57,443 nt of DNA, taken from a virus (Duplodnaviria > Caudoviricetes). Where the stretch lies: positions 1 through 57,443 of the IMG/VR virus record IMGVR_UViG_3300048693_000127. One strand, given 5' to 3'. How positions within the stretch are numbered: position 1 is the stretch's first letter; every line of letters begins with the position of its first letter. Positions 13,001 to 16,000 of this stretch are shown here, one piece after another. A program made the translations under genes and the position numbers. The notes below the pieces were generated by a model. The model made no database searches and was not told the DNA's origin. It worked only from the letters and a program-made list of their open reading frames with translations.

Positions 13001-16000
13001 GCACTAGGATATGGTGAAGACATTGGCATAAGGCCAGGGTTAACAGAAGATTATTCACCATTAGGATTTAGTTATCAAAAAATTCTTAAAGATGTTCCTG
13101 GTCTAACAAGAGTTCATTTAGGCGAGCCACAAGAATTTGCATTAGGTGGTCTTGTAAATCTATTTAAGAGATCCACATCATTAATTAGTGGATTAAGAAC
13201 AGCAGTTAGAGGCCACGGGCCATCTTCAAGAGCGGCATTCGAACCTGGATCAATTTCATACTCAAGTATGGAAAGAACAAGTCCAGCAAGTAGCAAAGGA
13301 AGATTTTGGCAAATAGCAGATCCAGAAAAAATGCATTTACCACAAGCAACAATTGATAAAGGAAGAAGTAGAGGAAGTAAAGTTATCGGTCATATTTATT
13401 CAAGACAGTTTTATAGTAGACATGGTAACGCACCATCAGGGAGATCTGCGCCAAAAAGAAGTTTTTCACAATTAGCGGGATTGAATTTAGTAGGTGCTAA
13501 TAGATTAAATCCAGGAAAAGAATATGATTTACTTGCAAATCAATTTGTCATGATTGAAGGTAAATGGAATACCAAAATTGGTGCAGCTGGGGGTGGAGCA
13601 ACAAGAAGTGATTGGGTAGATCTTGAGGCATCAGATATGATTTCTTTACTTCACTTTTTAATGTCTCAAGGCATAACAGAAAAAGACGCTTTGAGTGTTG
13701 CAAGAGTTGCTGCAACAAAAATTAATGCAAGAATTAGAGGTACTGGTGGGATTATTGATGAAAAACGCTTTGGCAAAATAGTTACAGGATCAACAATCCA
13801 AGCTCTTAGATCAAAAACAGCAGAATCTATAAATGTACCAGGACTTAATAGCGGTGGAATGATTGGTGGACAAGTTAATAAGTCTCGTTCATTCTATGGA
13901 AGATTTAATGCAAAAACTGTTGAGTTATTTACAAATTGGATTTCTGCTCAACCATCTACAACAGCTACAATGAAACAAAATCCAGCTTTATTCAGAGGTG
14001 GATTTAGAAAGAGCAAGGCAGCAGAAACACTACAGAGATCAACATGGCTTACTCAACTTCCTGAAGTAGGGTCAACAATGTCTCTTGGATCACTTGCATC
14101 ATTCTCTACAACAGATACCGATGTAATTCGACACCTTTCTAATAGCAAATTAAGAAAAGATTATGAAGCAGCTTACACATTCCTTGCTATGGATCAAAGA
14201 AATCAACAAAAGGATGCTAAAAATCTTAGAAGAATTAAGGAAATGGGAATAGAGAATGTTCCATCTTGGGCACCAGAACGTCGTCATTTTGGTGGAATAG
14301 GAAGAACAGGTTTAGAAGCATATATTGAAGATACAGCTGCATTTATAGAAAGTCGTAAAAGAAGTATCAAAAAACACAAAGCTGCAATTCGTGAATATGA
14401 ATCATATATTCCAACTATTATTGAAGTACAAACTCCTAGAGGCACAATAAGAGCAAATCTTGATGATATTGTTGCATTAGAAAATCAACAATATATGGGT
14501 AGAAGAACTTCAGAAAAAGAAAGAATTCTTCATAATGCAGCAATCAAAATCTTATCTATTGAGGATGAAGACCAGGGTATTAAAAGAATTAAGGCAAAAC
14601 TCCTTTCTTCAGAATATCCTGGCTTTAATACTGGTGGTTTTCTTTCTCCAACAATATCTGGTCAAAATATAGTTCCAGGAACTGGAAATACAGATACAGT
14701 ACCAGCAATGCTCACCCCTGGCGAATTTGTTATTAATAAAGAAGCCACAAGAGATAACCTTGGTCTTCTTCACGCTATTAATGGTGGAATAATTAGAGGA
14801 TATCAGTCTGGTGGAGATACTGCTAATAGGCCACATCCAGCTAGCCCACAAGTTCTTTATCCAGGTGGGCAGTTTTCAGCAGACCAACCAATACCAGTAA
14901 ATATTGAAGAAGTATCTGGAACAGATGCTAAAAGATCACCACTTGGTGAAAGTATGAAGTCTCAAAGAAGAATGGGACTTGGAATGGGTATGGGAGCAAT
15001 TGGTGGAGCAATGACGATGGCCCCAATGATTCCTGGAGTTGGTCAAAGTCCAGAACTATCTGGATTAATTTCTGGTGCAGGAATGGGAATGTCTGTTCTT
15101 TCAATGTTGCCAATGATCGGTGCTGGTGGACCAGTAACCATTGGACTTACTGCACTTGCAGCAGCAGCGGCTGCTGGTGGTTTTGCATTATATAAGTGGA
15201 GAGACATGGTTGACTCTGCTTCAAAAGCAGCAGCAGACTTTGGAGCAAATGTTGGTGGAACAGCCAATGCACTAAATCAAGCAGCAGAAATGTTTGGAAC
15301 ACAAACTCCAGCACAACGGCAAGCTGCTACATCAATGGGATTTACTCCAGAACAACAGGCACAGGCTGGTCAAGAATTTGGTTCATATTTTGGATCTGAA
15401 CAAGGACAAAAATTTATTGAAGATTTAAAGGGCGCAACATCAGAAGAAAGGTTCAAAAAACTTTCAGACTACCTAAAGGTAGCTATTGCGTCTGGAATGA
15501 CAGATAAATCTACTGCTCAAAACTTTGCAAAAACTGTTGGGCTTTTGTTAAACGATACCAGATTGGGCGCTGGAGTTTCTACTGCAATTGCTGATCAAAA
15601 AACTGGATCTGATGAATTATTAAAAATTGCAAAAAATAGAGAAGAAGCAGTATCAAATATTACTACTAAAGCTGCTGAAACTCAGGCAATGAATTATAGG
15701 CAATCAGCAAAAACAATTGGTGGATCAATACAAGTAATTCAAGATTTCTCTAATGCTTCTGCTCTTGCTAAAGAAGAATTTGCTAACGGTAAAATTACCT
15801 TTGCAGAATATCAATCAATAGTTCAGCAGTCTAGAGATGCACAAAGTAAATATACTGATGCAATTAGCGATGCAATGAAAAAAACATCAGACTTTGGTGC
15901 AACAATGCAGGCAACAAAAGATCAAATGGTCAAGTCTGGATTGCTTTCAGAAGAACAGTTTACAACATTAGAAGAAGCAACAAAAGTAAGTATAGCAACA

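Follow-up and report, generated by a model that had tools for sequence, protein, structure and literature searches.

A predicted ADP-ribosyltransferase module inside the tape measure protein of a putative actinobacterial siphovirus

Phage ADP-ribosyltransferases (ARTs) are known from capsids, as in T4 Alt and the MuF-VIP2 fusions, and the enzyme motifs known from tape measure proteins (TMPs) serve cell-wall hydrolysis. The T4 record places Alt in the capsid, from where it enters the host with the DNA. MuF-VIP2 fusions have been described in actinobacteriophage virions, for example as gp4 of Microbacterium phage Percival, and the available text of that work proposes that they act on the host at the start of infection (PMC7302621). 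In the Tmp of phage TM4, mt3 is a peptidoglycan hydrolase motif that is dispensable for tail assembly and whose deletion shortens the tail predictably, as stated in the accessible part of the report (PMC1796659). Here we describe a module inside the TMP of a viral contig, IMG/VR record IMGVR_UViG_3300048693_000127, analyzed as one stretch of 57,443 bases that we call the window (completeness estimate 47%, G+C 36%). We propose, with a probability of about 0.68, that TMP residues ≈1285-1545 form a mono-ADP-ribosyltransferase domain of the R-S-E class that belongs to a new sequence family, a reading built on a predicted fold.

The product of 10016-19564 is a genuine TMP that stands in the expected gene order. 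It is encoded by a single open frame of 3182 codons on the + strand, counted from TTG 10016.

10016..19564, + strand: TMP gene (open reading frame (ORF), PF10145, TIGR01760, PHROG TMP families and gene order)

PF10145 matches residues 243-433 (E = 3.6e-27; 96 bits versus a cut-off of 33.2) and TIGR01760 matches residues 189-542 (E = 9.3e-31; 107.1 bits versus a cut-off of 28.8), and several PHROG TMP families match the product as well. The first codon of the frame, TTG at 10016, has an ATG right behind it at 10019. At 3181 residues, the product of the gene caller (P0014) makes ATG 10019 the probable start, and the residue numbers used here may be one higher than those in database records. The start of the frame overlaps the 3' end of the preceding ORF (9748-10032).

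A preliminary description of this DNA had placed an ADP-ribosyltransferase-like domain at 13859-14620, a span that corresponds to TMP residues 1282-1535 counted from TTG 10016, and had picked out four motifs. All four are found inside the TMP at the places given there: TLQR at residues 1338-1341 (nucleotides 14027-14038), GSTMSLGSLASFST at residues 1352-1365 (nucleotides 14069-14110), IIEVQTPRG at residues 1468-1476 (nucleotides 14417-14443) and SEKERIL at residues 1499-1505 (nucleotides 14510-14530). Base 14519, suggested earlier as the site for a glutamate-to-alanine control, is the first base of the codon for E1502, the second Glu of the E-x-E motif. The module as we delimit it is predicted to consist of a compact ART beta core of ≈110 residues that is split, after the Ser motif, by a 95-residue antiparallel hairpin.

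13868..14650, + strand: ART-like module (TMP residues 1285-1545; AlphaFold2 model, ART fold matches and homologues)
13997..14122, + strand: putative ART core, N-terminal half (residues 1328-1369; strands carrying R1341 and S1362; 8 of 42 columns invariant)
14036..14038, + strand: codon of R1341, candidate NAD-binding Arg (invariant across all 16 modules; central in predicted strand 53-61)
14099..14107, + strand: codons of S1362-F-S1364, the S-x-S motif (within LASFST; S1362 invariant; in predicted strand 77-81)
14123..14407, + strand: helical hairpin insertion (residues 1370-1464; helices from the model; 3 of 95 columns invariant)
14408..14608, + strand: putative ART core, C-terminal half (residues 1465-1531; 14 of 67 columns invariant)
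14513..14521, + strand: codons of E1500-K-E1502, the E-x-E motif (both Glu invariant across all 16 modules; immediately preceding predicted strand 219-221)

The C-terminal half of the core holds the TP.GT..A..DDI loop region, the loop that precedes E-x-E and the closing strands. R1327, which lies in LFRG and has the more classical look, was considered as the catalytic Arg and rejected because only 8 of the 16 homologous modules have an Arg at that position.

The fold of the module was predicted with AlphaFold2. Run template-free with a nine-sequence alignment (A1), the program gave a model with a mean predicted local distance difference test score (pLDDT) of 76.5 and a predicted template modeling score of 0.63; all five alignment-based models fall at pLDDT 72.9-76.5, with core blocks mostly at 80-94. 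Strands precede the insertion at module residues 46-48, 53-61, 70-74 and 77-81 and follow it at 181-189, 194-197, 219-221, 224-233 and 239-247. In this numbering R1341 is residue 57, in the middle of strand 53-61, S1362 is residue 78, in strand 77-81, and E1502 is residue 218, just before strand 219-221. These positions in the model agree with the canonical placement in the R-S-E clade, in which the Arg belongs to the first core strand, S-T-S to the second and the catalytic E-x-E or Q-x-E to the end of the loop that precedes the fifth. The insertion takes up module residues 86-180 (95 residues) and consists mainly of helices 94-126 and 149-178, with pLDDT blocks of 82-94. Two structural features had been anticipated, a helical insertion of ≈100 residues after the Ser motif and a pair of closing beta strands, and the model contains both, the former as 95 residues with two long helices and the latter at module residues 224-233 and 239-247.

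Comparison of this model with structure libraries points to one enzyme class. Foldseek against the Protein Data Bank (PDB) returned 28 matches at E ≤ 0.001, and among the matches listed all 33 of 33 rows are ADP-ribosyltransferases, including Vis (9.6e-5), C3, VIP2, C3larvin, CDTa, ExoS, Plx2a and a Listeria ART toxin. A wide VIA-align search of a library of 48,161 representative chains gave 13 ARTs among the 50 rows listed, and these are the only listed rows that span the beta core: 8za7_B reaches Z 9.5 over 109 residues, SpvB (2gwm_A) Z 9.3 over 97 residues with a root-mean-square deviation of 2.1 Å and 23% identity, and Tre1 Z 9.0 over 91 residues with a deviation of 2.0 Å. The other 37 of the 50 listed rows fall on the hairpin region; one of them, prefoldin 2zdi, extends into the core. 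In a second VIA search, 42 of the 50 listed rows are ARTs, the best being iota Ia (3buz_A; Z 9.9 over 108 residues). The BFVD viral library returned 37 matches at E ≤ 0.001; among the 50 listed, 18 are named ADP-ribosyl enzymes or VIP2 and five more are head-morphogenesis or minor-capsid proteins, so that phage ART proteins, mycobacteriophage VIP2 proteins and MuF-type head proteins are all represented.

The hairpin matches generic helical hairpins only. Among these many hairpins it aligns with the long arm of seryl-tRNA synthetase (6x94; Z 9.3 over 81 residues), a likeness that is probably a mere shared shape.

On the strength of the template-free model and four fold searches, in which every match that covers the core is an R-S-E ART or a phage ART or MuF-ART protein, the ART fold (a split beta-sandwich of the R-S-E clade) is a prediction of good confidence for the module. 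As regards the fold and the strands that carry R, S and E-x-E, the structure prediction proposed in the preliminary description came out in its favor.

Homologous proteins allow the same residues to be followed across a family. A HMMER scan of 1.84 billion representative proteins at E ≤ 0.001 yielded 12 matches, eight of which cover the module (P0002-P0009; E = 4e-153 to 9e-29). Seven of these eight are 1876-4382 residues long, and the eighth, P0007, has 442 residues. Three of the other matches touch short stretches only, two of them within the helical insert, and one is a 356-residue fragment (P0013). Both P0007 and P0013 may be ORFs cut by contig ends. A word-indexed search brought in P0015 and P0016 as further homologues, and pattern scans added one more viral contig (1 of 53 candidate stretches) and five more metagenome loci (5 of 20). 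No standalone module of 143-497 residues was present among 6183 candidates. As judged from these sequences, the module family is small and, bar two short sequences, known only inside giant TMPs.

The resulting alignment has 16 rows (L024 was left out) that amount to ≈11 distinct sequences, since P0006, P0008 and P0009 have near-duplicates in L020, L021/L022 and L023/L025. R1341, S1362, E1500 and E1502 are invariant in all 16 modules, down to ≈32% identity, as is the R-I-L directly after E-x-E. Also invariant are F1330, S1333, L1339, P1474, G1476, T1477, D1483 and D1484. Of the 109 columns that make up both halves of the core, 22 are invariant, against 3 of the 95 columns of the insertion and none of the 57 flanking ones. 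The residues named in advance as the signature of the domain (the R of TLQR, the first S of SFS and E-x-E) thus coincide with invariant residues. The tip of the hairpin was considered as a conserved functional part and set aside: a single one of its 22 columns is invariant, and its mean conservation is the lowest of the segments with 16 rows, or the second lowest with 11. Taken together, the conservation and the predicted fold lift the motif set above chance.

Several observations weigh against the assignment. With 11 instances of E-x-E and 18 of S-x-S in the whole TMP, the bare motif pattern is weak evidence. The spacing between R and S, at 21 residues, is short. ARTs of the R-S-E class usually have an aromatic residue before the catalytic Arg, and the residue preceding R1341 is Q, R, L, H or E across the homologues. 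The Ser motif reads S-[FM]-[SA], a variant of S-T-S, with S1364 being Ser in 13 of the 16 modules and Ala in 3. From the single module sequence AlphaFold2 produces a poor, all-helical model with a pLDDT of 56.5, so that the fold depends on a shallow alignment of nine sequences (hhalign Neff 2.6). The Z scores of the ART matches, 9-10, are barely above the 8-9.3 of the hairpin rows in the same lists, which cover another part of the model; with values this moderate, the case rests on the agreement between libraries and on the coincidence of the fold position with the invariant residues. Moreover, the tail tube of a siphovirus leaves little room for three copies of a folded domain as large as this one.

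The sequence searches belong on the same side of the balance. Pfam gave no ART match for the module at E ≤ 1, nor for nine family members at E ≤ 10. A sequence-profile check against ADPrib_exo_Tox (PF03496), recommended at the outset, was negative: a six-frame scan at E ≤ 10 found no match to the module, in a setup where the positive control, T4 Alt, was found at 4.4e-38 (126.9 bits); fold and motif are the only link. The module has no match among PDB sequences by phmmer or in the ESM Atlas, and a PDB profile search gave four matches (E 0.1-1.2) without an ART among them, of which the best two lie within the helical insert and the rest largely on it. Comparison by hhalign with T4 ModA, ModB and Alt gave probabilities below 1%, and comparison with an eight-sequence alignment of the Alt family and with the VIP2 protein of Troll4 gave ≈1% or less. 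When the module is compared with the Alt family without its hairpin, the best local hhalign path pairs R with R, S with the first S of STS and ExE with ExE, at a probability of ≈1%, which is not significant. NCBIfam likewise has no match to the module, PHROGs match only the TMP motif that follows it, and megablast and tblastn did not find it in 50,697 phage records. Relatives of the Troll4 VIP2 protein are themselves few, with the protein itself as the sole match in viral contigs, 23 phage records at ≥99% identity and two proteins in the large collection. Because no sequence method sees an ART here, the module is not a member of PF03496, and its place in the ART superfamily is assigned by predicted fold and motif. 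On that assignment, the module is an ART sequence family not yet in Pfam and unseen by profile libraries.

We considered three other explanations. The one that survives best, although we regard it as unlikely, is an active ART fold that is not a protein-arginine transferase and instead works as an NAD+ glycohydrolase that depletes or remodels the NAD+ pool of the host, modifies a nucleic acid or small molecule, or attaches RNA. Some ART-fold enzymes do modify nucleic acids or small molecules or attach RNA, and fold and catalytic residues do not tell acceptors apart. The residue before the Arg, which is not aromatic, would suit such an enzyme, as would the resemblance of the long basic hairpin to the seryl-tRNA synthetase arm (6x94), which is one among many generic hairpins. 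The hairpin matches are generic, however, and Z scores of helical segments need caution; furthermore, E-x-E is invariant, and in iota, VIP2, SpvB, ExoS and Alt it goes with the modification of protein Arg.

Still less probable, in our estimation, is a catalytically dead ART-like fold retained for structure or binding, for example in assembling the tail, in docking or in inserting into the membrane. Such a role would agree with the position of the module inside a structural protein whose length sets that of the tail, with the departures of the Ser motif and of the residue before the Arg from the classical consensus, and with the failure of any sequence profile to recognize the module. The pattern of conservation argues otherwise. 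It is precisely the catalytic residues (R, S and both Glu) that stay constant in all 16 modules, to ≈32% identity, whereas the helices and flanks vary freely, which would be unusual for a pseudoenzyme. The TMP of Streptomyces phage Annadreamy (2076 residues), furthermore, has no more in common with this one than the N-terminal part and some coiled coil and is without the ART module, so the module is dispensable for TMP function. Very improbable is the explanation that the module is not an ART, that the shallow alignment has misled the modeling and that the motifs arose by chance in a TMP segment that is conserved, for despite the helical, low-confidence single-sequence model, the mere nine sequences aligned, the frequency of E-x-E and S-x-S in the TMP and the lack of sequence-level support, all five models agree (pLDDT 72.9-76.5), two aligners and three libraries give one enzyme class and nothing else for the beta core, and the motifs fall on fold-appropriate strands and are the invariant columns.

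If the module is an active mono-ADP-ribosyltransferase, as we favor, R1341 and S1362 would hold NAD+, and E1502, together with E1500, would catalyze transfer of ADP-ribose. The likeliest acceptor would be an arginine of a host protein, because E-x-E enzymes of the R-S-E class usually modify Arg. A few copies of the TMP would lie in the tail lumen of each virion and leave the tail ahead of the DNA, so the domain would arrive in the cell as infection begins and could modify its host target before any phage gene is expressed. The module would in this sense be for the tail what T4 Alt and the MuF-VIP2 fusions are for the capsid. Because NAD+ is found in the cytoplasm, the middle third of the TMP would have to get there. 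The hairpin may determine which target is chosen, or it may make the module narrow enough for the tail tube. Searches for a macrodomain or ARH antidote turned up none in the window (47% complete) or in a 94%-complete relative (G001), which fits a host-directed enzyme better than a toxin-immunity pair.

The surroundings of the module within the TMP point to a cassette-like arrangement. A 39-residue motif, VPG.G.TD.VPAMLTPGEFV..., occurs three times in the protein, its DNA copies having 81% mean column identity, and the second copy comes directly after the module.

11600..11743, + strand: hydrophobic segment (residues 529-576; Kyte-Doolittle windows above 1.5)
12095..12211, + strand: TMP motif, copy 1 (residues 694-732)
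12263..13867, + strand: variable cargo region with no recognized fold (residues 750-1284; replaced in most homologous TMPs)
14672..14788, + strand: TMP motif, copy 2 (residues 1553-1591)
14975..15193, + strand: Gly/Met-rich hydrophobic stretch (residues ≈1654-1726, limits approximate; repeated small-residue spacing)
19052..19168, + strand: TMP motif, copy 3 (residues 3013-3051)

The same motif is found in 217 phage records, in genes annotated as TMP; most of these phages are from Gordonia and Mycobacterium, and TM4 is among them. The motif has no match among PDB sequences. In eight of the nine homologues examined a copy starts 50-88 residues after ExERIL, and in P0003 the distance is 178 residues. 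The N-terminal 750 residues of the TMP remain alignable across homologues, whereas most homologous TMPs have unrelated sequence in place of the ≈530 residues that separate motif copy 1 from the ART module. This cargo region (residues 750-1284) has no match in PDB sequences, NCBIfam or the Atlas. The repeated motif brackets the variable region and may be a site of recombination or processing, and the sequences of the variable region may be further cargo domains. The absence of these parts from the Annadreamy TMP marks the cargo region as an addition. The middle of the TMP could thus be a cassette whose modules are swapped by recombination at the repeated motif.

The Gly/Met-rich stretch follows closely on the ART module and motif copy 2, and together with the upstream hydrophobic segment it flanks the cargo region; both segments may be membrane-inserting parts of the TMP. 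Glycine-zipper segments of TMPs are discussed as membrane-channel elements in the available text of PMC10240207. A broader proposal, which we advance only tentatively and hold to be rather doubtful, is that the TMP is a modular effector carrier with a motif-bracketed, swappable cassette, that one of its cargoes is an active ART, and that its middle third is threaded into the cytoplasm before the DNA. The swappable region beside the module hints at more unrecognized cargo domains in giant TMPs.

The left third of the window is a structural block of the siphovirus type, with the order portal, maturation protease, capsid-like gene, Ig-domain major-tail-like gene, two small chaperone-like genes and TMP. 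Gene order around the TMP is the same as in Annadreamy, the TMP following the major-tail-like and chaperone-like genes, and the portal is 50% identical to portals of Streptomyces phages, Annadreamy included. Further to the right lies a WhiB-family gene, a common mark of Actinobacteria phages that fits a phage of this kind. An actinobacterial host had been guessed beforehand, and both the WhiB gene and the portal identity agree with that guess. The G+C content of 36% suggests a low-G+C actinobacterial host, whose identity is putative.

46782-46958, + strand: WhiB-family gene (PF02467, E = 7.7e-15)
49817-50929, + strand: PstS-like phosphate-binding protein (PF12849)
53340-53909, + strand: dCMP/cytidine deaminase
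53950-55347, + strand: cytosine/purine permease of 465 residues (PF02133)

The last three of these genes lie near the right end of the contig, and a full-length transporter such as the permease is unusual for a phage. The contig also carries its own replication set at 29891-37679 (+), with a DnaB-like helicase, a DnaG-type primase, a Pol III alpha subunit of 1104 residues and RecA. At 43681-44823 (+) it encodes a 380-residue protein with a Hva1_TUDOR domain (PF11160, E = 1.4e-8).

An ART inside a TMP has no description that we could find in the full-text literature, subscription journals and supplements being outside the scope of that search. What is new here is an NAD+-dependent enzyme predicted inside a TMP, which would combine both known kinds, the host-modifying ARTs of capsids and the enzyme motifs of TMPs, in a new ART sequence family with a new carrier. 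If the broader proposal of a modular effector carrier is true, long-tailed siphoviruses would possess a host-takeover or anti-defense enzyme that acts ahead of the genome, and the phage would supply a built-in enzymatic reporter for the destination of the TMP during infection. An active module would add an ART sequence family that profile libraries miss and would mean that tails as well as heads deliver host-modifying enzymes. Activity would also bear on how far the TMP travels into the cell, for which the need for a cytoplasmic cofactor offers a direct test.

Among described systems, T4 Alt resembles the module in being a phage enzyme of the R-S-E class with E-x-E (PF03496 match at 4.4e-38) that is borne by the particle and reaches the host together with the DNA. 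Between its STS and the core strand that comes next there is likewise a long insert, and the order of its motifs is colinear with that of the module in the best hhalign path. Unlike the module, which is an internal domain of a tail TMP, Alt is a separate protein of the head, and there is no detectable sequence similarity between the two; the insert in the TMP module is a 95-residue helical hairpin. T4 ModB has S-F-S at residues 109-111, between LYRG and EQE, which we take to be its catalytic Ser motif and which matches the S-F-S of the module. MuF-VIP2 fusions and phage MuF polymorphic toxins share with the module an ART attached to a structural protein of the virion and carried by the particle, and they are among the BFVD matches. 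In those proteins, however, the ART is C-terminal on the capsid-internal MuF protein and is recognized by Pfam, whereas the TMP module is internal, tail-borne and without a profile match. The TMP itself has no MuF domain, PF10145 being its sole Pfam match above the cut-off.

The best matches to the core come from bacterial ART toxins, namely C3, VIP2, iota Ia, CDTa, SpvB, ExoS, Tre1 and Vis (Z 8.8-9.9, 91-117 residues, root-mean-square deviation 2.0-3.6 Å, 13-24% identity), which have the same layout of R, S and E-x-E. These proteins are secreted or injected and are not phage structural components, they are without the helical hairpin, and they show no sequence-level match to the module. They also carry the classical aromatic-Arg and S-T-S.

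The mt3 motif of TM4, as far as the accessible text on it goes, provides the precedent of an enzyme module within a TMP that works on the host during entry. Its target is the cell wall, outside the membrane, and it needs no cofactor, whereas an ART would need NAD+ and a target in the cytoplasm. TMP-related effectors of the Sle1 type, from contractile injection systems of actinobacteria, have interchangeable C-terminal domains according to the available portion of a recent study (PMC13277306, 2026), in which no ART is named. A TMP-like scaffold with interchangeable domains parallels the swappable region described here; as portrayed there, those effectors belong to bacterial injection particles and vary at the C-terminus, whereas the present protein is a true phage TMP with internal, motif-bracketed modules. 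Overall, within what that portion of the study covers, the Sle1-type effectors are the nearest concept to a TMP that carries its cargo as a cassette.

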